A stretch of 60,042 nt of DNA, filler included, from Circinaria calcarea (lineage: Eukaryota), in NCBI GenBank assembly GCA_051942165.1. It is 10 parts of 10 records of this genome, joined end to end, with 100 filler letters (N's around TTAATTAATTAA, not from the genome) between each part and the next. Parts side by side here need not be neighbours in the genome. Positions count along the whole stretch, not along the records: positions 1 to 5,927 come from JAVECS010001740.1; 9 more parts are not named here. One strand, written 5' to 3'. Made by a program: the position numbers and the translations under genes. Under the pieces are notes generated by a model, which worked only from the letters and a program-made list of their open reading frames with translations, had not been told where the DNA came from and did not search any database. This document shows, in pieces, positions 1 to 60,042 of this stretch. Each line of letters begins with the position of its first letter. The stretch's first letter is position 1.

Positions 1-529
1 GCATCCTCACCTTTGACCTGTGACTTGCCCGTAATCCGACTCCACATGATGGGCTGGATGGTGAAAGAGCTGGGCTGAAGGAATAATGAAACCAGCGATA
101 ACTGAAAAAGTCTGGGGGCTGGTGGAGAGTCAGTCGAGCTAGGGGTACCATTGGGATGTCAGCTTGGTTGCTGGAAGCTGTGGCGTAACTCGAAGCAACT
201 GAAGCTGCGGCGGTTCCTGGGTATGGGGTTCGTGAAGTCGAGGAGAAGCTTGAGGAGGTTGGATTGAAGCCACGGTCACGGTCGTCACCCCGTGGTGGTT
301 TTCGGGCAGAAGTAGAGGATACCATGGATTCAGATCGATGCCGTCCAGAGCGCCGCTCCTCTTCTTTGCGCCGAGATGTCTGGGAGCGCGCATCCTCACT
401 TTTGACCTGTGACTTGCCCGTAATCCGACTCCACATGATGGGCTGGATGGTGAAAGAGCTGGGCTGAAGGAATGATGAAACCAGCGTTAACTGGAAAAGT
501 CTGGGGCTGGTGGAGAGTCAGTCGAGCTA
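1..529. repeat. Direct repeat, 389-bp period (copies 1-141 and 390-529)
   Basis: GCATCCTCAC...CAGTCGAGCTA occurs at 1-141 and 390-529. I count 4 substitutions and 1 indel. The first copy is cut by the contig start. Confidence 0.95.
142..436 (-). pseudogene. Duplicated 5' fragment (~98 codons) of a probable Woronin-body tether (Leashin/Lah-like) gene; a second ATG copy at 47 runs off the contig
   Basis: Manual translation from ATG 436: MWSRITGKSQVKSEDARSQTSRRKEEERRSGRHRSESMVSSTSARKPPRGDDRDRGFNPTSSSFSSTSRTPYPGTAAASVASSYATASS. The RKxxRGDDRDRG and SVASSYATA motifs match my recollection of Aspergillus Lah N-termini (not verified). Confidence 0.5.
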
Positions 530-1829
530 ATATCACCAGGTAATTCTGAATTACCTATCAGTATGATTATCGCCAACGCATAAACTCGAAGGGTATCTTG
601 AAGTAAATTCGTAAGGTCGTCAAGGTCTCAAAGCAACGGTTCAGTTATGTAGATGTGCTTGCTCCACTTCACCGCATACTCGGGGGGTTGGTGAAGGGAA
701 ATCCAACTTCAGCTCTACTGTAGACTTTTAGGGTGCGGCATGGGTGCATCTCTAGCGTAATTCCGAAATACACCTATATGACAGAGGGAGTCTACAGGCG
801 ACAGACATATCCTATCTTCGACCGGACATTACCATGTTCAACAATTCGTGCACGCAATCGGCTCTAACCTCACTGTTCACATAGCGTCTATTATGACAAT
901 GTGGATCTGTGAAGCCCCCGAGAGGTGATTGCGCCGTGAGAACAGGAGCTCCATATACTCTATCACAGGCAGATCTAAGGGCAGATCAAAGCACACCGAT
1001 GGCGATTTGCAAATCAAGACTATTGTGCACGGCCACACAGAAAATGTAGTGCGACCCATAACTGTGACGAAACTTCATTTGATTGGGTCCACGTATCAAA
1101 AACTAACCAAACAATAGAGGAGAAATTGATAGCAGAAGAGTAAGATAGAGCCTGTAGGCCTTTCAAAACGCCGAGATGAGATACCCTCTGATGGCCTCCT
1201 GCAACTTCCAACGCTACATTTAGTTCAACTCATACCCTTACCATTTCCATTCCCCACACCATTGGGCGTGCTATTCAATTTTCTTCGGGGACCACTTCCC
1301 GTCCTCATTGTTGCGGAGGCATCTGCGCCAGCCAGCTCGGTGGTGTCATTCCGGTCTAGTCCTGTACTGTCGACCGCAGTGGTAGTAAGCTTTGAAACAA
1401 GTTACGAGTTAATGCTGAGTAGTCGCTGGCGGTCCCGGCGCCTGTATCCCGTACGGAAATTTTTGGGTTGAAGGCCATTGACAGCTCGGCGTTGGCGTTT
1501 GCAAGTTTCTAAGAGGATTAAACAATTACAGTGACATTGCGATAAATAGAAAATACTTAATTAGAATATCAGCACGTTTTGGAATTTACGGGAGAAAAAT
1601 ACTATGGCCATACTCGCCAAGTAGCATGATCAAGAATGTATTAATATGTAATCACGTATCAAGTTGAGCTATGGTGGAAAAGCTTTTAGAGAACCATTTG
1701 AGCAATATGACTGTGCGGGCACTACTGTGGAAGAGAAAACTATCTCATTTTCATAATCATTCTACAGCTCAGTAAAACCTTGTTCGAAAGGCCTTCCCTG
1801 GTAGTTATTTGAATATCGCACAGAGAAGG

Positions 1830-2440
1830 TCCCGTGGTATTATTGCATGAAGTAGGTACAAAGTCAGGCAAGCAACGCCTGATTCACCCTAAGCCTTGAG
1901 ATGCGATTTCTCAACAGCTTTCCCACGGCAACCTGCACCGTCAGAACAAAAGGGTTGATTAAGAACATGCCCTGGTGTGTTGAGATATCCTGTTCATTCT
2001 CACCAGTAAGACGCTTTCACACCTTGTCGAATTAATCCGACCCGAGAAATTCCCAGTGTCATGGCCAAGAAGGCAGGTTGATTCCCCGTGAGGGTTTCGC
2101 CATCCATTCTGCCTGCTGCAATGGCTCTTCTGGCCTGACTCATCCTCGCGGGATCTGCCATCTGATAATAGGCTCGAGCCATGGCTTGCATGTCTTGGGA
2201 AAATGAATGTGGAAACATTTCCATCCGTGGGATTAGCCCAAGGCAAATGTCTTGCTCCCCCAAGTCCGCTACCTCAGCAATCTGCGCGTTCGTCATATGG
2301 CCAAATTCTACCTAGTTGGCACCAAGCGTAGTAAGATTCCCTTCCATCTCATCCACGCCGTCTTGCAACAGAGTTCCGCAAGTCGTCGCTGTTAGATTAG
2401 TCGTATCAATTCCATAACCTCTTAGATACGCGGTTAAGTA
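1830..2440 (-). pseudogene. Degenerate ORF of unknown function
   Basis: The 3' part of ORF 2312-2599 and ORF 2000-2296 are in one frame separated by a single TAG (...TTLGAN*VEFGHMTNAQ...). The frame continues past two more stops (YW*E*TGYLNTPGHVLNQPFCSDGAGCRG). Confidence 0.35.
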
Positions 2441-3033
2441 ATATACAATTAGTAAAGTGTGCGGAAAATAGCAACGGGAATAGTCTCGTACCTTTCTAAC
2501 TTCCCTTCCCTTCCCTTGAACTTCTAGAGGTCGCTCCGTGCTGAAGAGGGGGTTTCCAAAGCAGAAAATACACCTGTTTCGGAAACAATCAGTTTTCACA
2601 GTGTACCTTGCCGTGCGAGCCGCCTGCTTGTTATGGAAGTCCCCCGGACCTTCCTTATAGAAGGTACTCTGTATATAAGTAGTAAAAAGATAGTAGAAAC
2701 GAAGGAAATTTCACCTCCACCACATAACACTGTTCGACATGGTAGTTGTATGCAGTCCTTCGGTTTTCTTCCCGCATATTTCCGCATCATGGTATTTGAC
2801 TCATATATCGGGTAGAAATGATCCTTTAATATCGATAGGTAAAGATAGGTCCAATGCACAAATACAACGTAGGTAGGGCTCAAGCAAATAGTAGGGTTTT
2901 CCATCTCGAAAGAGCTTTCCTCCGATTCACAGCTGCCGCTCCATAGGCCCAGTAGGGATCGCGAACCCCTCTCTATATCTCAACACAAGCAAAGCACAGC
3001 CATGCCACTTGCAAGATATTAATTATAACACAT

Positions 3034-5031
3034 TTAATCTCTCCCACTACTCCCTGGCGCACACTCCTCATCGTATTTTACCTCTTTACCCTCTCCCTTC
3101 TCCTTCTCGATAACCACCCTTGGCCTCTTAGCCGATTGCTTTTTCTCCTTCGGATTGAGCACATCCGCTTGGTTTCCGGGAACTTGCCTTGCTCGCATCT
3201 TCCAGTGCTTAGCCGCGATAGCAGACTCGCTATGGCCATGGAACTGGGAGGTAAACTCTTGAATTAAATCGTTACCGAATCGAGGATGTTTCCGGAGGAC
3301 GTCCGACTCTGCCTCGGACCACGGTACCCTGGTTTCCCGGGTTCTGGGTTGTCCCTCTGGTACTTTGCGCCGGTTAAAGAGGCCCTTTATCTTCGTGACT
3401 ATTCGATCGTACCCGAAACGCTCACGAAACGGCCCCAATGGCGTCTTGTCATCTAGAAACTCATCAGCAGACTTATTTCGTCCTTAGATCAAGGGCTTCT
3501 CGGCTCGTTGTGATGAGGTTCATGCGAGCCCCCGCGCTTGTCATATCCCAAGTTATTGAACATTGCCCTAACTGCCAAATCTGTGCGCCCTCCATGGAAG
3601 CGATTCTCGAGTGGCAGTATGGCATCCTCCCATTTTACCACGACTTTCAAAACCGCGAGTTCCTCTAGTGTCCATTTCAGCCTCTACATGCTAGTCTCCA
3701 GGTCCATGCTCTTAGCGAAATAGGTTTTGTTAAACATGTTCCGTACGCTCATTGGTGACCTTCCTAGGCCACAGCTACTTAAAGCCTTTGCCGCGGAACT
3801 AGCTGTGACACTACTTTTGACGATTTCGATCTCTTCCGTGCTCCATTCTGTTTCTCTATCTTTCGAATCTCTTACGCCTTTTGATTTCAATTGGAGATAG
3901 CGTCTATGAATGACAGCCGCTTTGAATCTTTCGAAGCCCGCGGTAGCGAGCACTGCTTGCGCGACCTCGTCTGATTTCTTACCACTAATAATAGCAATTT
4001 CCTCTTTAGTCTAAGGCCTGTTTACATGGGGGTCTTCAAGCAAACCTAATGTCCTTCGTTACCCTTGGACATAACGCTTGGATCGGGTAAACCCCGCGGC
4101 CGTATACTTTTTATATATATCCCTGGGTTCTGCTGTTTGGTTCTACTCCAGTATTCCTAATTCTTCCATTGTCCACCGTGGCGGTTTTTCTGTTTTGGTC
4201 GGTTTCTCTTTGATCAGCTCTTTATCCAATCCTTCTTCAGTTGCCACCGCCCTGAGTTTGTGCACCGTTTTCATGGGCCCATGTTGACCTAGATTCAGTT
4301 GGTTCCTTTGCCACAGGCAAGCTGCGTAACTGCGATGGAAGCCCGTGACTTCCAGCTTTGAAACAGCCGATCTAGTGTCCGCGGCCTCAGACACTATTTT
4401 GATCTCCTCGCGGGTCCATTTGAGCTCGTTTCCAAACACAGAGAATCTTGATGATGACTGACGATTAAGTCCTTCCCATGGCCTAATCCAACATCCCTGC
4501 GGGCGAACCAATCTTGCAAATTCGAGTGCCATAGGACTTGTGGAGATCCACTCTCGATTTGGTGAGTCTCCAGGAGAACCATTAAAGCAGTTTCTAATGT
4601 CGCTGTTACGCCTCGAAGTTGAAGTTCTTCCCGGTCCGTGGTAGGTTGAGTGAACCTTGCCAAAGCCCGTATGTGCGCTTCTCTCCCAGGCACCATGAAG
4701 AACTTGTAAACGGCCTGGACTGAACAATCTGGAAGGGTTCCGTTCATTGCACTGGCTATTTTACGGTCATGATGTCCTAGCCTTCCGCGGAAAACGAGCT
4801 CTGCCATGGTCTGACCCATGTAGGCCTCCAAGATATCCACACCAGTTCCGAATATGCCATACACTCCCCAGTCCCTTCCGCGGTGATCGCTGAGGTCTTC
4901 AAGTTGCTGGGAGGTCCATTGGACCCCACCAAAAGGTTCTTCACCTCCACGGGTATACTTCTCAGAACCGTACCAATCAGTGGAGTGGGATTGTACGAGA
5001 CACGGAATGGCAAAGCCGTAGTGATAAACAT
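3034..5031 (-). pseudogene. Decayed GIY-YIG-like endonuclease fused to seven Myb/SANT-like repeats
   Basis: Motifs WGVYGIFG...EAYMGQT...FRGRLGHH, LETALMVLL and WEGLNR. These are followed by repeats KWTREEI, RWTMEEL, RP*TKEEI, EWSTEEI, KWTLEEL, SP*SKDEI and PWSEAES. There are five in-frame stops and about three frameshifts. Confidence 0.65.
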
Positions 5032-5102
5032 AAAAATTGGAAGTTAACGAAAGTCATATATACACGGTGGCATTGGGTTACGAACAGAGAGTACTTTAAT
5101 GT

Positions 5103-5157
5103 AATATTCTTACTACCCGTTGATGAATATTCTTACCACCCGTTGATGAATATTCTT
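5103..5157. repeat. 23-bp tandem repeat (~2.4 copies)
   Basis: AATATTCTTAC(T/C)ACCCGTTGATG twice, plus AATATTCTT. Confidence 0.9.
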
Positions 5158-5542
5158 GTTCTTCCCGAAATCATAAATTCACTCTAACTAATTTTCTAGA
5201 CTCCCTTGAAGAGCTCAACTGTAGATAACAACAACACTTCTCAATTACCAGTTCCATCGCTCTCATAAAATGTTTGAGTCCCACATATTAAAAGGCGAGA
5301 GATGAGGAGCGCAACAATTAATGATCGTGAGGGTGCCCTCCAGTGCCTATTCCAGTTTTGGTATGAATTTTCAAGTGTGGTTTGGCCCTCGATACATATA
5401 TATCCTGGTAGGCATAGCCTATTTTATTTACGCAGTAATGCTCGTAAGCCCTAAGATACCCCGCTTGCTCGCAGGCTGGTAAAGTAACTTATCCCAAAAA
5501 CAGCTTCGTCGTCTTGCGCTTCGCATCCCAAGGATTATATAT

Positions 5543-5927
5543 TCAGGCATCACCAGTATCTACTACGAAATAACGAAATAATGCCTCCCAACGGCCGGTG
5601 GCTCCCCCGCGAGGGTTGGTATACCTCGAGTTACCCTTCGAGGGCTGACGGTTGAAAACGGAAAAGGCTTCTCCCTCGACGTCCTGCAGAGTGTCGTCGA
5701 AAAGACGGCGCTGAACCCGGCGCTGAGTCTGCCTCTCTTCCTCCTCTCGCGCTACACCCGCAAAGGGCAATCCATTACCTCCGGCTATGAGAAAGCCCTG
5801 CAATCCCTCAAAGTGCTCGTGTGCCTCGGGCTGGCGCGATGGATCAACGGCGTCTTGAACAGAGGGGTACTGGCCAACTGGAAGAGTGACAAGTGGGACT
5901 GGAGTAAGGATTTTGTCGTCATCACGG
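5543..5927 (-). CDS. 3' end of hypothetical protein (truncated by contig end)
   Basis: The frame is open from the contig end (RDDDKILTPVPLVTLPVGQYPSVQDAVDP...) to the stop at 5543. No family recognised. Confidence 0.4.
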
Positions 5928-19775: not shown

Positions 19776-22700
19776 TCAGTCAATACAAAATGACGGCAAA
19801 GGAGACTCGAATTTAAGCAGATCCCATCCGGGTTTTTCATAGCTTATCTCTAAGCACCTTAGGCAAACCTTTTCCGTTCCGAAGATACCGACGCTGTGTG
19901 CCTGACCTTTCTGCGAGATGATACTTACAGCAGCGAGACGCGCCGCCCAGTTCCGGTGAGCCCTGAATATTCCGACGCTTTCCGGACCGTCCAGAACCTC
20001 CTCCCAGCTGTCTAGACTTGTGTAATCGTATTTAGAACTGCTGTTATGAGGAGTAGGACACTGACAATCGATTTTGAATCGGTTCAAACCTTCGAAGTCC
20101 ACAGCGAGAATATCCAAATCAGCCACCCATTCTCCACAATCCAAGGCTGATATAACGCACTCGACAAAGTGGACATCTTGATCAATGGTCCGCGTGCCTT
20201 CCGTTTCCAAAGGTAGGGTCCAATCGGTGAAAGAAAGATGAAGTGTAGTAGCTTTGAAATTATTCTCTCTCTTCGAGTCATACATCGCATGAGTCACGAC
20301 GTTGTATTTGTCACTCAGTGATCGGATCTGAGGATCCTGAGGCGCAACCAACATACAGATGCCCGAGTGTCCAATACTCCCAACTATCCGCTTGACGTCA
20401 TATCCAGGGACGATGTCAAAAGGGTCGGACAGGACTGCGCCAGCAACGTAGATTGAATTCCCCGAGCACAACGCCAAGGTACTTTCCAAATCCTCCGGAT
20501 CCAGGTGCAAAGTACCGGATTCAAACATCGCAATACATGCAAACGTTCCTAAGCGATCAAGTTCCACAACTGCCATAGCCTGAAGGACCGGGCATTCTAA
20601 TTTGGCGCTTTGCTCTTCTGGCTTTGAAGCAATAAAGGAGGCCGTAGGGCTAGAAGGTATCCATAGAGCAGTGTGCAGTGAGTCGGATACCACTTTTAAC
20701 GATATAGTGGCGCCGTCAAGATCTTCATATACCTGAGATGCTAGAGTCATTGCGTGTAAAGACCGGATGCAAAGCGGTGGGAAAGTATGCGAGTCGGCCA
20801 TTAAATACATCCCAGGGGCCCTTTTATGCTGCTCATCACTCTCCTCATCACTAGTGCTTGTTAAGCACCTTATGTAGTCTGCGAGTCGTCCCTTGCATGT
20901 TGATGGGTCCGTCAGCTCCTTCAGACTAAGTGGTGGACTTATTAAATCGTTTCTAGCAGCTTTTGCCCTTTGAGAGTATTTTGATGGGCAGTCATCTTCA
21001 ATTGGGCAATGGCCATGTACCTCCTTTCGGGCGTATAGGCCCAAAGGCCACATGACGTGCAGAGGGCAGAACTGAACCATGGTCTGTCCGTCCAAATCAG
21101 AGCTAACTTGGCCGCCCTCACACTTTGAAGGACATTTCGGTCCTGAAGAGATTGGCTGGTCAGGCGTGAAACAGCCACATGAATGTTTAGAATCCAAAAC
21201 CGACGGACAGATATTTGAAGTCGTAGGCTCGTCCAAAGAATTAGCTGAAGACGGAAACAGGCGATATAGGGGAGGGGGGTTAACCCAGTGAAGATGTCTC
21301 TTGATAATCTTTGGACCGTTCTGTGTATATATCCCGTTCTCATGTTGTGCCGACAACTCGCCAATGCGAAGCTGGCTGTATTTCTGGGTAAACTCGTTAT
21401 TTATTCTTGATTCATACTCTGCTGAACCAGGATCTCCAATCTCACTGATACAATGAAGCCATCTCACATGAACTTTTTCGTTAATAGCATCGCCGTTGGC
21501 ATCTCGCTTTCTAGAAGTCTTTTCGTGAGGAACTGCGGTTGCGAATTCGATAAAGTAGCAGGATTTTTCGTGCGGTTTATGTTCATATGCTATGATTGCT
21601 TCGTTGCTTTTCATTCCACATCTTTTCGCGAGATCACGCAGGTAACGAAAACCACATTCGATATCAAGCTTATTACTAAGCCCAACAAGAATAGAGGGGT
21701 TACAGAGACCAAAAAAAGGAGATAACTTATATAAATCCTGGCATAGAAAGGTTTTTGCTCTGCGTTGGCCATATCTTAAAAGAAAAAGATTTTCTGAATG
21801 CTTTTTCTTTTCTGGAGACAATAGGGCCTCTGCAGCCTGTGCAAGGTTATATAGCCAACGCAAGTCCGAGGTTGATTGAGGATTTTTTATCTCTAGGTTC
21901 ACTTGCGTTAAAGCCCCCCAGAGCCCTGCGAACCATTGAGCAGCAGCTGTAAAATCAACCGATCGAACTTTCCAAGCGCCGAACATGCTTCCTAACGTTA
22001 TTAGATGGAGTTGGTGAATTGTAACCCGTGTAAACTCTGTGTTGCTCCTAACATGGACAGGGCCGCCATAGTAACGGAGATGTGAGAGAGTTAAGGACCA
22101 CTGCGTACCAGTATTTGAAGCTCTGGATTGTACGCCTATAGTACCAATCCCAGTGCGAGGGACAAGGGGGTCTTTAAACTTGACGTTCGCTGTTTCCGTG
22201 CCGAGAACAATGAGGTCTGGGAACAGATGCCAGGCTGATAATGCCAGAAGAACCGAAGCACTGCAAATTGATTGTGGCTTACCACAGAGAAGACTCTCCA
22301 CTCCGTTCATGGCTTGTTGCCATGCTTCAATAACTTTGGCATACGTCGAAGGGCCGCCATTGAAAGGAATGTTGATGTTCTTCAAGATGAGCATTAGTTG
22401 ATTTTGCTCCCAGACTTTGGCTTGGTCAGCGCTACGGAGCCAGGCACGTGTGCTGGCATCCCAGAGAGCGAGGTCCTGCCTGGTGATATCTTGACGTGCA
22501 CTAAGAAGACTTGATTCGGAGATGAGGTGGTTTTCCTTGAAAGCCTTTTCAATCTCACTTCTCCGTCCCGCAACTAATTCGACCCAAATCGATATTGACT
22601 CCTTGGCATCCCAGGCTCTGGCCAGTAAGCAAGCCAGCAGGTATATACCTAGAGCGGAGATTCCAGATGTTGCGGCAGCCCAGATGGCAGTGCCGTCCGC

Positions 22701-23042
22701 TCCAACGAATGACTCGAACGGTCCATGACTTGCTGAACCACGAGGATTGATACCCGGTGTTTGGATGATCTCGGTGATTCTTAACCCGTACGCTGTTATT
22801 AGCTTTGGCGTAGATGGTATTAGCTGCTCGAAGAGCGCGCCAAGCCTTCGAGCAGTCTTGTGCGGTAGACCTTCTTCCGCAGCATTTCGTATCCTGCTTG
22901 AAAGTGCTGAGCCGAGAGCAGTGAATTCTACCGGCGCCTCCACTTTCAAGAGAGAAAAATCAAATTTCAAGTTAGCAAGCGACAAAGAGTTCTCGTTGGC
23001 TGCCGACAAAATGGAATTGGTGATTCTCCCAAGTGACCCCAT
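19776..23042 (-). CDS. 1088-aa intronless hypothetical protein
   Basis: Uninterrupted 3.27-kb ORF. N-terminus LANLKFDFSLLKVEAP..LG.ALS..AEEG..H.TARRLGALF resembles uncharacterised filamentous-ascomycete proteins (recollection). No catalytic motif recognised. Confidence 0.85.
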   Translation of the reverse strand: MGSLGRITNSILSAANENSLSLANLKFDFSLLKVEAPVEFTALGSALSSRIRNAAEEGLPHKTARRLGALFEQLIPSTPKLITAYGLRITEIIQTPGINPRGSASHGPFESFVGADGTAIWAAATSGISALGIYLLACLLARAWDAKESISIWVELVAGRRSEIEKAFKENHLISESSLLSARQDITRQDLALWDASTRAWLRSADQAKVWEQNQLMLILKNINIPFNGGPSTYAKVIEAWQQAMNGVESLLCGKPQSICSASVLLALSAWHLFPDLIVLGTETANVKFKDPLVPRTGIGTIGVQSRASNTGTQWSLTLSHLRYYGGPVHVRSNTEFTRVTIHQLHLITLGSMFGAWKVRSVDFTAAAQWFAGLWGALTQVNLEIKNPQSTSDLRWLYNLAQAAEALLSPEKKKHSENLFLLRYGQRRAKTFLCQDLYKLSPFFGLCNPSILVGLSNKLDIECGFRYLRDLAKRCGMKSNEAIIAYEHKPHEKSCYFIEFATAVPHEKTSRKRDANGDAINEKVHVRWLHCISEIGDPGSAEYESRINNEFTQKYSQLRIGELSAQHENGIYTQNGPKIIKRHLHWVNPPPLYRLFPSSANSLDEPTTSNICPSVLDSKHSCGCFTPDQPISSGPKCPSKCEGGQVSSDLDGQTMVQFCPLHVMWPLGLYARKEVHGHCPIEDDCPSKYSQRAKAARNDLISPPLSLKELTDPSTCKGRLADYIRCLTSTSDEESDEQHKRAPGMYLMADSHTFPPLCIRSLHAMTLASQVYEDLDGATISLKVVSDSLHTALWIPSSPTASFIASKPEEQSAKLECPVLQAMAVVELDRLGTFACIAMFESGTLHLDPEDLESTLALCSGNSIYVAGAVLSDPFDIVPGYDVKRIVGSIGHSGICMLVAPQDPQIRSLSDKYNVVTHAMYDSKRENNFKATTLHLSFTDWTLPLETEGTRTIDQDVHFVECVISALDCGEWVADLDILAVDFEGLNRFKIDCQCPTPHNSSSKYDYTSLDSWEEVLDGPESVGIFRAHRNWAARLAAVSIISQKGQAHSVGIFGTEKVCLRCLEISYEKPGWDLLKFESPLPSFCID

Positions 23043-54045: not shown

Positions 54046-54145
54046 NNNNNNNNNNNNNNNNNNNNNNNNNNNNNNNNNNNNNNNNNNNNTTAATTAATTA
54101 ANNNNNNNNNNNNNNNNNNNNNNNNNNNNNNNNNNNNNNNNNNNN
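54046..54145. other. Artificial contig spacer
   Basis: N44-TTAATTAATTAA-N44. Confidence 0.98.
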
Positions 54146-57100
54146 GGTGTAAAGAGCCGAGTGGTTTTATTTGGTGGACAGGGATCTTCTAGCCTCTTTT
54201 CCTCGTCAGCGCTGTCGGCTGCTAAAGAAGATGTGCTAGCCTCATCAACAGGATTGATATTAGCTTCTCGATGTCATACTGCACTGATGGAGGAATACCA
54301 GAGTCTCGATCAACGCACAAAAGATAGACTTCACATTGATATATCGAAGTTCGGTGGACCGCAAGACCTTCTGGCTCCAGACCCTTCGCTCCGAGCTCAT
54401 GGTCTCATTCAGTTGGTTTTCATCACTCTATTGCAACTACTTCGATATGCTAGGGAAGCCGATGGGTATAGACGAGGTTTCAACTCTTGGGCAGAGGAGG
54501 TAATGGAGACAACTGGCTTTTGCTCCGGATTAATAAGCGCATCCGTTGTTGCAAGCTCACTTACTCCGATAGAATTTACAGATTTTGGCGTTGAAGCCTT
54601 CCGGCTTGCATTCTGGATTGGCTGCAGAACTTTCTTGAAAAGCCAAGAATCGAATCCAGTTCACCAGCAAAGGGTATCCTGGTCTCTGGTTATTATTGGT
54701 CTCAGTCTTCCAAGGGTACAGGAAGAACTTCAAAATTACCAGATAAAGACCAAAAGTCAATTTCTTCGAATCTCCGCTATCTCAAGCGCCACGGTGATCT
54801 CGCTGGCAGGACCAGGGTCACAGCTTGAAGAGTTCAGGCAAGGACTGGAATCTGCACCGATAACGAAGTTTGCAGATGTTAATGCATGGTACCATGGCGG
54901 TGAACACCTCGAAAGCACGTTGAATGAAATCATGGAAGATGTTGAAAGACGAAATATAAGATTCCCCGAGTTCAAAGACTTGAGAGTACCTGTTCGGTCC
55001 TCAAGTAACGGGATGATTATCAGTACCGAGAGCTTAGGTTCATCTACCTATGCGTCGTTGGTGATCCGTCATTTGTTGATCCACCCGGTAGACTGGGTCA
55101 AAACCTCTCAGGGCATTTCCTTGGCTGTTCAAAAGACCCTGGAAGAAACAAGAGGCTACCCACTAGAGATTGCCTCTTTTGGGCCGAGTTCCAACTCAAT
55201 TCTGGCTGAGCTGATAACTCTGAACAAAGGCGCAGCCGTGATGTTCACGGACCGATCAGCGTTCAAACCAGGTGAAGCTACCACTTTTCAAGGAGAAGAC
55301 ATTGCTATAACTGGTATGGGGGTAAACTTCCCCGAGGGTAAAGGCCCAGATCAGTTATGGGAAACCTTGTCAACGGGATTGAACGCGGTGTCGGAGGTTC
55401 GTATAGTCCAGACCTCTATTGCTTATCCTTGAACTAACATTGTCCACCTTAAATATAGATTCCCGAAACTCGATTTGATATTTCAAGGTATCATGATCCA
55501 ACCGGTATTGGCAAGCCTCGCACAATGGCTGTGAACACAGGTGCTTTCCTCGATGATCCTTGGGGGTTTGACTCTGCATTCTTCAACGTCTCTCCACGAG
55601 AAGCACGATCGATGGACCCCCAACAGCGAGTTATTCTCAGTACAACCCAGGCCGCTCTCGAAGACGCTGGATATATGCCGGATGCTACGCCTTCGTTCCA
55701 AAGAAGTTCGATTGGTTGTTATGTGGGTATTGCCACGGGCGACTATGTTGATAATCTGAGGGATAACATCGATGTCTACTACAGCCCAGGTGAGTCAACC
55801 GGAGCTCTCGTCGTACCTCACAACGCTTCCGGCTGACTGCCACCAAGGCACATTACGAGCATTCCATAGCGGCAAGGTCTCTTACATGTATAAGCTTAGT
55901 GGGCCTTCTATGACGATTGACACCGCTTGTTCGTCATCTACGGTTGCCATCTACCAAGCCTGTCGAGCAATTCAAGCCGGCGATTGCACGGCAGCCATAG
56001 CTGGTGGTGCTAACATTATAAGCGGTCCTGATGTAAGTCGCCGTTACATGAGGGACTATTTTTTTCTAACACTTTGTAGATGTATCTGGGCCTCGACCGG
56101 GGACATTTCCTTAGCCACACTGACGGCTGTAAGCCGTTTGACAAGGACGCAGACGGCTACGGTCGTGCTGAAGGATGTGGAATATTTGTCCTTAAGCGAC
56201 TCTCAGATGCGATTGCAGAGAACGACAGGATACATGGCGTAATAAGAGGAATCGAATTAAACCAAAGCGGCAATTCCTCCTCAATCACGCATCCCCACAG
56301 TGAAACACAGACACAATTGATTCGTCACCTTTTCAGAAAGAGCAACATTGACCCAGCATCTATAGGCGTGGTTGAGGCTCATGGAACAGGGACACAGGTG
56401 AGCCGCAAGTGCTAGTTATGTGAGTTGAGATGCTGCTAACATAAAACCTTACAGGCAGGAGATACTCGTGAAATTAGCACTTTACGTGCTGTCTTTGGAA
56501 AAGCACGTTCTGCAGCTAATCCGCTCATCATTAGCTCAGTCAAAGGAAGCATTGGCCATTGCGAGGCAGCTTCTGGTTCCGCTGGGCTGGCAAAGCTATT
56601 ACTTATGCTGAAAAAGAACGAGATCCCTATGCAAGCGAATTTGAAAACGCTGAACCCACAACTGGGTGACCTCGAAAACGGTAGCATCATCGTTCCAAGG
56701 AGGTCGATACCATGGAAGTCTAGATCATCACTCCCAAGGAGAGCTTTGCTGAACAATTTTGGGGCAGCGGGCTCAAACGCAGCGTTGGTCCTTGAAGAGA
56801 GAATTGGACCTAGTATCACAGATACTGGGATTGATGATCGCGCTACATATCTGTTCAATCTTTCAGCAAAAACTAAAGAGGCTTTGAACGCTTCCATTCT
56901 CCAGCATCTACAATTCTTGGAAAATACCCCTTCCGAAACTCCACTGAAAGATATTTGCTATACAGCAACTGCGCGCCGGCAAGTTTATGATCATCGTGTA
57001 TCAGTCGCGTGCACGTCAGTGAAGGACTTGCAGGCAAAGCTGGCGAAGGCTGATCTCACCGACTCTAAAGTCTTCGGCCAAAGCCACCTCGTTGGATTTG

Positions 57101-60042
57101 TCTTTTCTGGCCAAGGCAGCTTGTACTATGGAATGGGAAGAGATTTGATGAAATCGTCCTCTTCATTTAGGGCATCGATCACACAATGCAATACCATAAT
57201 AACAGAATTAGGGTTTGATAGCATTCTCGAGTATATTTCTGGAGACACGCTGCCTCGACCAGATCCTCAAGTCAACGACATTATCATCTCGCAATGTGCT
57301 TGCGTTGCACTGGAGTATTCCGTAGCACAGCTCCTTATGTCGATGAATATCAAGCCGAATTATGTGGCAGGACACAGGTGCGCGCCCCAAACACTTTATA
57401 GAGAATAAAGGCTGATTATGTTCAAGTTTGGGTGAGTATGCCGCGCTTATCGTTTCAGGTGCTATAACCTTAGAGGACGCCTTGTTTATTGTTGCCAATC
57501 GAGCTCGAGTCATGACGGAGCAATGCGCACCTGGTTCATCCGGCATGGCCGCATGCCAGTTATCTCCTTCAAAAGCCGACGCTTTGATTGCCGGCAATGC
57601 TAGCATGTCGCGTTTGAGCGTTGCATGTAGGAACAGCGAGGACGCTTGTGTTATTTCTGGTCCATTGACTCAGCTCGACGTTTTTCAGATGATGTCCTCA
57701 AAGCAAGGAATCAAAAGCAAGAGATTGGCCGTGCCCTATGGATTTCACTCCGAGGCCATGGATCCAATCGTCATGGCCTTGCGTGAGCTTGGAAAATCTG
57801 TACTATGGCGTACACCTGCGATCCCCGTTGCATCTAATGTTTCGGGCCGTTTGTTGAATCCAGAGGATTTTGGGCCAGACTATTTTGCAATCCACGCGCG
57901 GCAACCGGTTCGCTTCTCGGACATTGCCCAATGTTTGCAGAGGATAGGAGCCCTTGACGAGGCTGTCTGGATTGAGGTAGGCCCTCATCCAACAACTCTT
58001 CCAATGATGCAACGTTCGGCCAACACGACATGTCAACTATTTCCGTCAATGCAGAAAGACAAGGATTCGTGGACTTTGCTGTACAATATCCTCGGCTATT
58101 TCTATAGGAGTAGAGATGATATCAACTGGCGCAGTGTCTTCGAACCTAATATGAGGATGCTTGACCTCCCAGGACATCCGCTGGTCAGCACGCCTTTCTC
58201 AGTGCCTTATAAAGAATCCAGTCCGGTTGCATTAAGCTCCGAGCAAGACGTGGCCCTCTCCACACATACCGGTTTCATTCTTCTGCCAAGGCGGCTGACA
58301 TGTGACTCTACACCCGAGAACACAAGCTCTGTCTTCGAGACTACAATGGGAGTCCTTGGTCAACATATCGCCGGCCATAATGTTGGAGGGACTGCAATCT
58401 GCCCCGCCTCGGTCTTTTTTGAACTTGCACTGGAGGCTGCTCGAGCTACTGTCACGCTCGATTCTGATTGCCTGTTAATAGGTCAAGAGATAAGCTTCGC
58501 GAATCCACTAATTTACGACTCCAACAACAGCAGCCAGCCAATCCGTGTACACCTGGTCCAACCAAAGACTCAGTCTGGGAGTGCATCGGACATCAGAGTT
58601 ACCATTAGCACGATCCAATCTGACAAAGAAATCCACTGTTGCAGTACCACTCTCTCTATTAAAGGCTACTCCGAAGTGAGGCGGAGCCTAGTCAAGGATG
58701 GTGCACTTGCCAACCGACAGAGACAGCACTTTTCGCATGGCAATACCGTCCACAGTACTTTTCACAAAAAGCTCCTCTATGAGACTATCTTTACTCGTGT
58801 GGTGACTTATTCGGCCGAGTATCAAAGCTTGGTAACATTCAGCATCTCGAGTTCTAGTGATGAGGGCTTTGGTTCGTTTAAATTGCCATCAACCTCTCAT
58901 AAGGACAGATGCTTGATACCTCCTGTCTTCACTGATACGCTGCTGCATGCTGCCGGATTTGCTGCGAATTTGAGTGTTTCCTCTGGCGAGATATGTATTT
59001 GCAGCCACATCGGATCTGTGGAGATTCTCGATGACACCAACTTCGACAATGACTTTACAATATATTGCAGTCTTTTTGATAACGCGAATGGTAGCATCCT
59101 AGCGGATGCGATCGTCTCGGACTTTACTAGAGCAGCGTGCGCTACTATTCGGGGCATCGAGTTCAAGAAACTCCGTCTAACTTCTTTCCAGAGGCTTCTT
59201 CAGAACGCGGCTATACGCCCAACCAAAACGATATCACATCCAGAACTAGCACCACGTCCATCCTTAATAAGGGATCAGGACCCAGCCACAGCTTTGACTG
59301 GTCCTCAACCCCTAGCGGTGGACACTCGGGCTAGAGTTCGGGACACTGTGAGTAACATTCTTGAGGAGGTTTATGGCTCGAACGAAATTAATCCGACGCT
59401 TTCACTGGAATCACTCGGCATTGACTCCTTGATGCAAATCGAGATTGCCTCAAAACTGAGAGACTCCTTTCCAGAGACCAACATGAGTCCAAATGATCTA
59501 ATGCAATGCGAGTCGCTCGACGCACTGGAAAACTATCTTATTTCGGCAATTTCAACTCCCGCTTTGACACTCTCAGGCAACGTGACGCCTGAGTTAAGCT
59601 CTTCAGAGTCAAATGACGGTGCCTGCGCTCAAGTGCGAGATCCCCCGATTGGGCTGATTGGTCAGGTCTACGGTTCCCAAGAGCTTGACTATTCGAAGTC
59701 GCCGGATTCGCTAGGGACTGATCCCCTAACGCAGTTCGGGAATGCCACGAGTTTGGAAACTCCTGCCACTAACTTTGCCCATCACAATCTACTACAGCAA
59801 GATATCCTCCAAGTCGTCGAGGACACTCTGGAACGTAACGTCCAGCCAAAACAAAATCATAACAACAACGCACAGCATTTCGCATCTGAAAGAGTATCAT
59901 CCACTACTAATGGCGAGGTTACACAAACAAGCGTTTCCAAGAACGTCGTTGGATCCCTAAAGAAAAACCCTTTGCTCTTGCATGCTTCCGAAAGTCCGAA
60001 CCTACCTATATATCTGTTTCATGATGGCAGTGGGCAGGTTGG
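54146..60042 (+). CDS. Non-reducing iterative type I polyketide synthase (SAT-KS-AT-PT-ACP-[vestigial ACP]-TE), both ends truncated, 5 introns seen
   Basis: SAT LFGGQG and [36 protein letters not shown], spliced [27 protein letters not shown] and [21 protein letters not shown] start [11 protein letters not shown]. Confidence 0.95.

Follow-up and report, generated by a model that had tools for sequence, protein, structure and literature searches.

A pseudogene of Circinaria calcarea with seven Myb/SANT-like modules and a possibly GIY-YIG-type N-terminus

Introduction

In the modular GIY-YIG homing endonucleases, among them I-TevI, I-BmoI and the phage Seg proteins, a small catalytic domain with the motif order GIY...YIG...R...H...E...N forms the N-terminal part, and small DNA-binding modules are strung together behind it toward the C-terminus. 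The DNA-binding domain of I-TevI tethers a nuclease that has a single active site. Genes for modular GIY-YIG homing endonucleases tend to decay into pseudogenes. Here we describe a coding relic in the nuclear genome of the fungus Circinaria calcarea (assembly GCA_051942165.1), which lies on the minus strand at positions 3034-5031 of a 60,042-nucleotide (nt) stretch of DNA; this whole stretch is referred to below as the window. The relic resembles the enzymes named above in the order of its N-terminal motifs and in the chain of small modules behind them (on modular GIY-YIG homing endonucleases, see also PMC3664794 and PMC1564403).

The original prediction for this locus was a GIY-YIG-like nuclease fused to an array of seven Myb/SANT-like repeats, which was thought to be a long-target endonuclease or the protein of a selfish element. 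We found that the gene is a pseudogene. Our preferred explanation, to which we assign a probability of about 0.55, is that it is a unitary pseudogene, the ancestor of which was a nuclear protein of approximately 665 amino acids, built like a modular homing-type endonuclease with a GIY-YIG-type N-terminus and seven modules. A search of the literature, with paywalled papers and supplements outside its reach, gave nothing in titles or abstracts on a fungal protein that joins GIY-YIG to a Myb array. Similarly, in the available part of a 2006 survey of the GIY-YIG superfamily (PMC1564403), the term 'Myb' occurs 0 times.

Results

The relic is divided among five open reading frames and carries seven tandem repeats

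The window was assembled from ten pieces of 5,897-5,927 bases, which were placed in descending order of length and joined by N44-TTAATTAATTAA-N44 spacers; any feature reading across a spacer is invalid. One window ORF is recorded in a public protein collection on a contig of 5,905 bases, the exact length of the piece it comes from, so that the pieces represent separate small contigs from one fragmented assembly. The relic sits in the first piece (positions 1-5927) and is flanked by approximately 3 kb and 0.9 kb of context. On the minus strand, 5053-3034 is tiled by five stop-to-stop open reading frames (ORFs) of 219, 205, 108, 64 and 149 amino acids (same strand, ≤2 kb), as expected from the original prediction, in which the gene was split into five ORF fragments. 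From ATG 5031 to the stop at 3034, the relic measures 1998 nt, or 666 codons, distributed over three or four frames, and the earlier estimate of about 660 codons from the joined frames was thus accurate. The main frames are called A, B and C here, in the direction of translation. Frame B (4760-3489, minus strand) is a single frame of 424 codons and is made of the middle three ORFs. A gene on the minus strand should have a purine-rich coding strand, and the plus strand is indeed rich in T and C over 3001-5000, with AT skews of -0.20 and -0.16. The features of the relic are as follows.

4868-5031, minus strand: possible 5' end; ATG 5031-5029 opens a third frame (MFITTALPF...)
4502-4867, minus strand: N-terminal domain in frame A, with GVY at 4867-4859, YMGQT at 4822-4808, R-G-R-L-G-H-H at 4789-4769 and LETALM at 4597-4580
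4461-4478, minus strand: WEGLNR in frame B, candidate GIY-YIG Asn motif, reached from frame A via a frameshift in 4760-4394
4179-4421, minus strand: repeat R1, KWTREEIKIV...FHRSYAACLWQRNQL, with a linker of about 25 amino acids; leave-one-out score 13.4 bits
4014-4178, minus strand: repeat R2, RWTMEELGILE(stop)...FTRSKRYVQG(stop), with in-frame TAG 4145-4143 and TAA 4061-4059; leave-one-out score 1.7 bits
3846-4013, minus strand: repeat R3, Trp codon replaced by TAG 4013-4011, then TKEEIAIIS...FERFKAAVIHRRYL; leave-one-out score 0.4 bits
3675-3845, minus strand: repeat R4, WSTEEIEIV...LGRSPMSVRNMFNK, then in-frame TAG 3686-3684; leave-one-out score 3.5 bits
3492-3674, minus strand: repeat R5, WTLEELAVL...GGRTDLAVRAMFNNL; leave-one-out score 7.9 bits
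3328-3491, minus strand: repeat R6, broken; Trp codon replaced by TGA 3491-3489, SKDEISLLMSF in frame B, frameshift in 3483-3456, LDDKTPLGPFRERFGYDRIVTKIKGLF in frame C
3169-3321, minus strand: repeat R7 in frame C, WSEAESDVL...HGHSESAIAAKHWKM
3034-3168, minus strand: C-terminal tail, with the basic stretch KEKKQSAKRPR at 3150-3118 and the terminal TAA at 3036-3034

All of the motif strings on which the original prediction was built are present on the minus strand. The basic stretch in the tail may, judging from its composition, be similar to a nuclear localization signal.

The Trp-position codons of the seven repeats, at 4418, 4175, 4013 (TAG), 3845, 3674, 3491 (TGA) and 3321, were located exactly as predicted, and the spacings from one to the next are 81, 54, 56, 57, 61 and approximately 57 codons. 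The six-frame translation of the 60-kb window contained six occurrences of the pattern W[TS]x[EDA]E, compared to 1.5 expected per shuffled set, and five of the six fell within the relic, on one strand and within 1.1 kb. Alignment of the seven window repeats (alignment A1) gave the consensus W-[TS]-x-E-E-[IL]-x-[IV]-[IL], followed by a middle helix, G-x-R-[ST] and a third helix. When each repeat was left out in turn, the resulting profiles recovered five of the seven (R1-R5) in register, and nothing outside 3034-5053 scored above 0.1 bits. R6, which is split by the frameshift, and R7 were not recovered in this way and are assigned by pattern and spacing. On sequence grounds, the tandem repeats of the relic are real.

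The repeats resemble Myb/SANT helix-turn-helix modules

An AlphaFold2 (AF2) model of R1, calculated with alignment A1, contained helices at residues 4-12, 16-26 and 32-41 and had a predicted local distance difference test (pLDDT) score of 82.9, which exceeded 92 over the first 40 residues. The model is thus a three-helix bundle of the size of a Myb/SANT domain (~50 amino acids). It could be superposed on CPC, WER, Reb1, TRF1 and c-Myb at 1.4-2.1 Å over 39-41 residues, with Z scores of only 3.7-4.3. The best Z score of the structural search overall was 4.8 and was tied with other helix-turn-helix (HTH) folds, and GcrA and the Tc3 transposase HTH superposed on the R1 model equally tightly.

Taken by itself, the window gave weak direct evidence for a Myb/SANT assignment. 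Foldseek returned 0 matches for the R1 model at E≤0.001 in the PDB and BFVD, no window piece was matched by PF00249 in Pfam, and the best match of A1, which contains window sequences only, against the PDB was GT-1 with an E value of 0.81. Furthermore, only the first Trp is conserved in the window repeats, and the second and third Trp positions of Myb are occupied by other residues, so that the three regularly spaced tryptophans of Myb/SANT are not seen.

The assignment was instead reached through a family of related phage modules, which is described in the following section. We prepared a joint alignment (A2) of 16 rows, ten of them phage modules and six of them window repeats, in which the two sets align nearly without gaps. 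The A2 profile matched c-Myb in the PDB with an E value of 1.4e-5, c-Myb R3 with 0.0014 and the SANT domain of DNAJC2 with 0.0015, and 15 of its 17 PDB matches were Myb/SANT chains, the remaining two being GcrA. Thus, the reading of the repeats as Myb/SANT-like HTH modules, as originally proposed, is supported by this bridging module family and by the predicted fold, rather than by a direct Pfam match.

The module is shared with phage LAGLIDADG endonucleases and a metagenomic helicase

When frame B was used to scan 1.84 billion representative proteins with HMMER, three matches were obtained at E≤0.001. Two of these (P0002 and P0004) are long repetitive bacterial proteins and were taken as spurious. 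The third, P0003, which phmmer matched with an E value of 2.4e-5, is a metagenomic ResIII/Helicase_C helicase of 711 amino acids with six tandem 49-amino-acid modules of the form WTKEEDDI...GYNRS at its C-terminus. It scored 23.5 bits against Pfam Myb_DNA-binding, for which the cut-off is 24.4. It belongs to a cluster of 14 metagenomic proteins, none of them named in any source, and the contigs that carry them reach 244 kb; a search of viral contigs for P0003 gave no pattern match. A1 matched all six P0003 repeats in register, at 10.7-23.6 bits each and 91 bits in total, compared to a maximum of 4.0 bits in 400 shuffles. In the reverse direction, the three best matches of a P0003-repeat profile in the six-frame window were R1 (5.5 bits), R3 and R4, all in register, with a frame E value of 1.9e-4.

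A search of prokaryote genomes with P0003 led to a contig of a metagenome-assembled genome (L001), on which an ORF (2989-3942, plus strand) encodes two N-terminal modules followed by LAGLIDADG_1 (Pfam E value 2.2e-8). This ORF is flanked by a NAMPT-like gene and by a weak match to a phosphoribosyltransferase, and eight relatives of it (L069-L076) were found on IMG/VR viral contigs of up to 217 kb. The N-terminal modules of these L001-type endonucleases were unmatched in Pfam. A1 scored 10-17 bits against the first module of the LAGLIDADG endonucleases, with 17.0 bits for L070/L071. Conversely, the three best matches of a phage-only module profile in the window were R4 (3.5 bits), R1 and R7, with a frame E value of 0.0031; the alignment to R7 was in register but, at -4.5 bits, fell short of significance. 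In PHROGs, frame B matched phrog_323, which is labeled as a transcriptional regulator, with an E value of 2.6e-4, and the N-terminus of the L001-type endonucleases matched the same family with an E value of 6.9e-9 as well as a family of HNH endonucleases.

At the level of sequence, these reciprocal, in-register profile matches show that the window repeats belong to the W[TS]xEE module family of the phage LAGLIDADG endonucleases and the metagenomic helicase. The parallel that was originally drawn with modular homing endonucleases is borne out to this extent, namely that the same module family is found on phage LAGLIDADG endonucleases.

The N-terminal domain keeps the order of GIY-YIG motifs

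In frame A, GVY is followed by a 12-residue spacer and YMG, which reproduces the bipartite GIY...YIG arrangement, and the second Arg and second His of YMGQTMAELVFRGRLGHH are spaced R-x3-H, as is appropriate for the Arg that is conserved some 8-11 residues behind YIG and the His/Tyr that follows it at the fourth residue. Candidates for the Glu and Asn motifs are LETALM in frame A and WEGLNR in frame B, which lie in different frames and are without alignment support. The elements GVY, YMGQT, R-x-RLGHH, LETALM and WEGLNR thus keep the GIY-YIG order. The composite pattern G[IVL]Y-x8-15-Y[IVLM]G-x5-15-RxxxH occurred once in the window, at the relic, compared to 0.005 expected per shuffle; the pattern was written after the sequence had been seen, and chance matches to it are expected across many windows. 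Among the neighbours of the N-terminal part in a language-model Atlas, the GIY-YIG clan provided the sole Pfam families (6 of 30 in an open search). It also accounted for 15 of 30 named clusters, with scores of 0.92-0.94, and the other 15 had no family in common.

Other observations weigh against a GIY-YIG identity or fail to support it. One in three shuffled proteins likewise obtains ten concordant named matches in the Atlas, and the Atlas signal may be the same short motif seen again. The classical GIY-to-YIG spacer has 10-11 residues, which the 12 residues between GVY and YMG exceed, and the candidate Asn motif is in another frame than the rest of the domain. Searches of Pfam with every window piece for this domain found 0 families at E≤10, and PADLOC gave 0 matches to the N-terminal part. 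We also used four in-house GIY-YIG profiles, built without filtering from 35 PF01541 matches and 30 homing-type domains, all of them from Bacillota genomes. Two of these did not report the N-terminal domain, and the other two scored it at -0.6 bits, equalled by 109 of 2000 shuffles, and at 0.4 bits, equalled by 41 of 2000; the scores did not improve when the WEGLNR segment was appended with an X at the break. A search of PDB sequences with frame A gave nothing below an E value of 1.4, and NCBIfam contained no relevant match. The GIY-YIG probability from hhalign was below 1%. A single-sequence AF2 model of the N-terminal domain had a pLDDT of 40.3, too low for a comparison with the GIY-YIG fold, a three-stranded sheet flanked by helices.

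That no profile method detects GIY-YIG is in keeping with a second explanation, in which the same dead gene encoded a Myb-array DNA-binding protein with an N-terminus other than a nuclease, such as a factor acting in transcription or on chromatin, or a regulator of viral type similar to phrog_323; the regulator annotation of this nearest phage family agrees with it. GVY...YMGQT...RxxxH would then be a chance resemblance, of the kind that a motif with a chance of ~0.005 per window will produce when many windows are considered, and it would possibly lie inside a degenerate eighth module. The sequence WTSQQLEDL (frame A, 4918-4892, minus strand), upstream of GVY, resembles the first helix of a module and may be the stump of an eighth one, and a G-R/Q-T recognition-helix segment may be discerned in YMGQTMAELVFRGRL. 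However, none of the module profiles (A1, A2 and phage-only) has a match on the N-terminal region, and an eighth module that begins at WTSQQLEDL and spans the GIY-YIG motifs is retained only as part of this second explanation. Moreover, the named Atlas neighbours point to no family other than the GIY-YIG clan, and the motif order, together with the additional E and N motifs, fits GIY-YIG. We regard a non-nuclease N-terminus as the main alternative, which is possible but not the explanation that we would expect to hold.

Altogether, the claim of a GIY-YIG-like nuclease, which has the ordered motifs and the Atlas neighbours behind it, was not confirmed and finds no backing in Pfam, PADLOC, the in-house profiles or hhalign. 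We lean toward a GIY-YIG identity for the N-terminal domain, with some reserve, and we consider it probable, but not proven, that an ancestral N-terminal domain of approximately 130 amino acids had the GIY-YIG motif order.

A separate observation on GIY-YIG matches was made in one metagenome-assembled genome (G001), in which two such matches, L007 and L008, contained TAG codons in frame: one match has four such codons and the second has a single one. They could be defective genes, or they could come from phage DNA in which TAG encodes an amino acid.

Further copies and signs of mobility

The original prediction included a selfish element, and a third explanation of the relic is accordingly that it is a decayed copy from a multicopy transposon or homing family, which was killed by repeat-induced point mutation (RIP) or by drift. 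Homing-type genes commonly degenerate, and RIP often leaves TAG and TAA stops, both of which occur in the relic. In contrast to what this explanation would require, no second copy was found in the 60-kb window by tblastn or blastn, no paralogue was detected by HMMER with frame B in a collection that includes the gene calls of the same assembly, and no terminal inverted or direct repeats were found flanking the relic. RIP raises TpA/ApT and lowers (CpA+TpG)/(ApC+GpT), whereas the indices of the relic are ordinary (TpA/ApT of 0.80 and (CpA+TpG)/(ApC+GpT) of 1.13), similar to those of the other nine contigs, and the G+C content is 0.495; inactivation by RIP was rejected on the basis of these indices and the lack of a second copy in the window.

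Searches for homologues were also without result. Three word-indexed protein searches with the N-terminal part (proteins of 72-230, 120-384 and 385-2000 amino acids) revealed no relative, and two of them were empty even at E≤10; word-filtered protein searches gave no relative of the repeat part either. Scans of metagenome contigs with both parts of the relic gave 88 and 480 pattern matches, none of which was confirmed, and tblastn with both parts against 50,697 phage records gave no match at E≤1. Our analysis revealed no signs of homing, target sites, mobility or cleavage at the locus. The empty search with the N-terminal part and the lack of such signs count against a homing-type ancestor as well. 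The selfish-element claim was not upheld, given a single copy in the window, ordinary RIP indices, the lack of flanking terminal repeats and the empty homologue searches, and we consider it quite unlikely that the relic derives from a multicopy selfish element.

Stop codons and frameshifts identify the gene as a pseudogene

Frame B contains five in-frame stops, TAG 4145-4143, TAA 4061-4059, TAG 4013-4011, TAG 3686-3684 and TGA 3491-3489, and two of these, TAG 4013 and TGA 3491, replace the Trp codon of a repeat exactly. The change from frame B to frame C occurs within 3483-3456, which agrees with the frameshift predicted near 3460. The change from frame A to frame B may be situated anywhere in 4760-4394; our best guess is approximately 4490-4505 rather than 4550, where it had been placed. 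A third shift, predicted near 4920, is required only if ATG 5031 is the start codon. As frame A contains no Met upstream of GVY, either a frameshift within 4868-5031 or the loss of the start codon has to be assumed.

Introns were considered as the source of the frame changes, and GT...AG intervals were sought that had a suitable length as well as donor and branch signals of the fungal kind. No such candidate bridges the change from B to C or that from the N-terminal frame to A, and the two candidates for the change from A to B begin at poor donor sites and, if spliced, would eliminate WEGLNR, so that introns were rejected. The fungal mitochondrial code, in which TGA specifies Trp, or a mitochondrial insert was also rejected, given the G+C content and the fact that it would account for neither the TAA stop nor the TAG stops, among them the TAG at a Trp position. 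While single-base frame changes could possibly be due to errors of assembly, it is unlikely that five substitutions to stops are. Because five stops interrupt its reading frame, which in addition shifts at least twice without a plausible intron, the gene is a pseudogene and its present copy is inert, which disposes of the proposal that the locus encodes a working long-target endonuclease. That the gene is intact and working, its breaks being assembly errors, introns or unusual decoding, is very improbable, because even though the assembly is highly fragmented (contigs of ~5.9 kb) and all three frame changes are in the same direction, as from one missing base each, two of the five stops replace a conserved Trp, no credible intron is available, and TAA, TAG and TGA together are not explained by any single recoding.

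Other features of the window

Pfam found 0 families in the ORFs that flank the relic in the first piece. A 23-nt unit is present there as a tandem duplicate with 96% identity at 5103-5148, approximately 60-70 nt upstream of the possible start of the pseudogene. Near the end of the same piece, a 117-nt stretch is repeated with 97% identity at a distance of 389 nt (1-117 and 390-506) and is followed by an exact repeat of 27 nt, so that these repeats occupy 1-529. They lie within a Ser/Pro/Arg-rich ORF on the minus strand that runs off the end of the contig, and they arose by tandem duplication or else are an artefact of assembly at the contig end.

The tenth piece contains a non-reducing polyketide synthase gene (54098-60040, plus strand) that runs off the end and has SAT, the N- and C-terminal parts of KS, AT, PKS_DH_N and ACP domains; these are distributed among three ORFs, with introns presumably between them. 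This gene is in keeping with the fungal, ascomycete-type character of the genome. An uninterrupted ORF of 1,088 codons at 19776-23042 (minus strand) matched no Pfam family at E≤1e-5, and its exact sequence is absent from the protein collection.

Discussion

The architecture of the relic can be described as that of a modular nuclease with Myb-like reading heads, a variant of a known design, though with an unproven nuclease and in a dead copy. It differs from I-TevI-type enzymes in several respects. The relic has no profile match to PF01541 or to the in-house GIY-YIG profiles, and no NUMOD, IENR or zinc-finger modules were matched in it by Pfam. It is nuclear and fungal, whereas the I-TevI-type enzymes are of phage or organellar origin, it has seven Myb-like modules instead of a single HTH, and no intron or homing-site context is visible at the locus.

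The relic shares a module of approximately 46 amino acids (W[TS]xEE...G-x-R-[ST]) with the L001-type LAGLIDADG endonucleases (phrog_4645/phrog_323) and P0003, and in each of these a nucleic-acid enzyme carries the module. The catalytic partner is different, being LAGLIDADG_1 in the L001 type and ResIII/Helicase_C in P0003, and so is the number of modules, which is two in the L001 type, six in P0003 and seven in the relic. Unlike the relic, the L001-type proteins and P0003 are bacterial or from phage, and their similarity to it is remote, as is evident from the phmmer E value for P0003 and the empty tblastn search of phage records.

Similar to c-Myb R1-R3, SNAPC4, Cdc5, Reb1 and TRF1/Tbf1, the relic consists of tandem three-helix modules with W-x-x-E-E in the first helix and G-R-T/S in the third. 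In contrast to these eukaryotic Myb/SANT proteins, it is unmatched by PF00249 and keeps only the first of the three spaced Trp residues, and its period is 54-61 amino acids, compared to ~52 for Myb. Furthermore, its nearest sequence relatives that we found are phage and metagenomic proteins and not fungal Myb factors.

According to our preferred explanation, the unitary pseudogene with a modular homing-type ancestor, the ancestral protein would have consisted of the N-terminal domain, seven diverged three-helix Myb/SANT-like modules of ~55 amino acids and a basic tail resembling a nuclear localization signal. The array might have recognized a long DNA site, one module after another, and in doing so it might have tethered or positioned a small N-terminal nuclease with a single active site. 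The gene would then have decayed, as homing-type genes tend to do once empty sites run out. This modular-nuclease design is plausible because the same module family is attached to the phage LAGLIDADG endonucleases. The present copy, being dead and without detectable relatives, cannot itself be tested directly.

A more far-reaching version, that the relic stems from free-standing GIY-YIG endonucleases of the homing type that formed a nuclear lineage in eukaryotes, in which each of the seven modules read one short sub-site and the gene was assembled from, or acquired with, the module family of phage LAGLIDADG/HNH endonucleases, seems unlikely to us. If it were true, intact and possibly mobile relatives would be present in fungi that are outside today's protein collections. 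If the N-terminus is truly GIY-YIG, the relic would represent a nuclear fungal case in which a small nuclease is joined, in the style of phage enzymes, to a chain of DNA-reading modules. Seven Myb-like modules make an unusually long array, and long arrays are relevant to the choice of targets by selfish nucleases and to the design of modular DNA-binding scaffolds. A compact Myb-like module family, below the threshold of Pfam, links this fungal relic with phage LAGLIDADG endonucleases and a metagenomic helicase.

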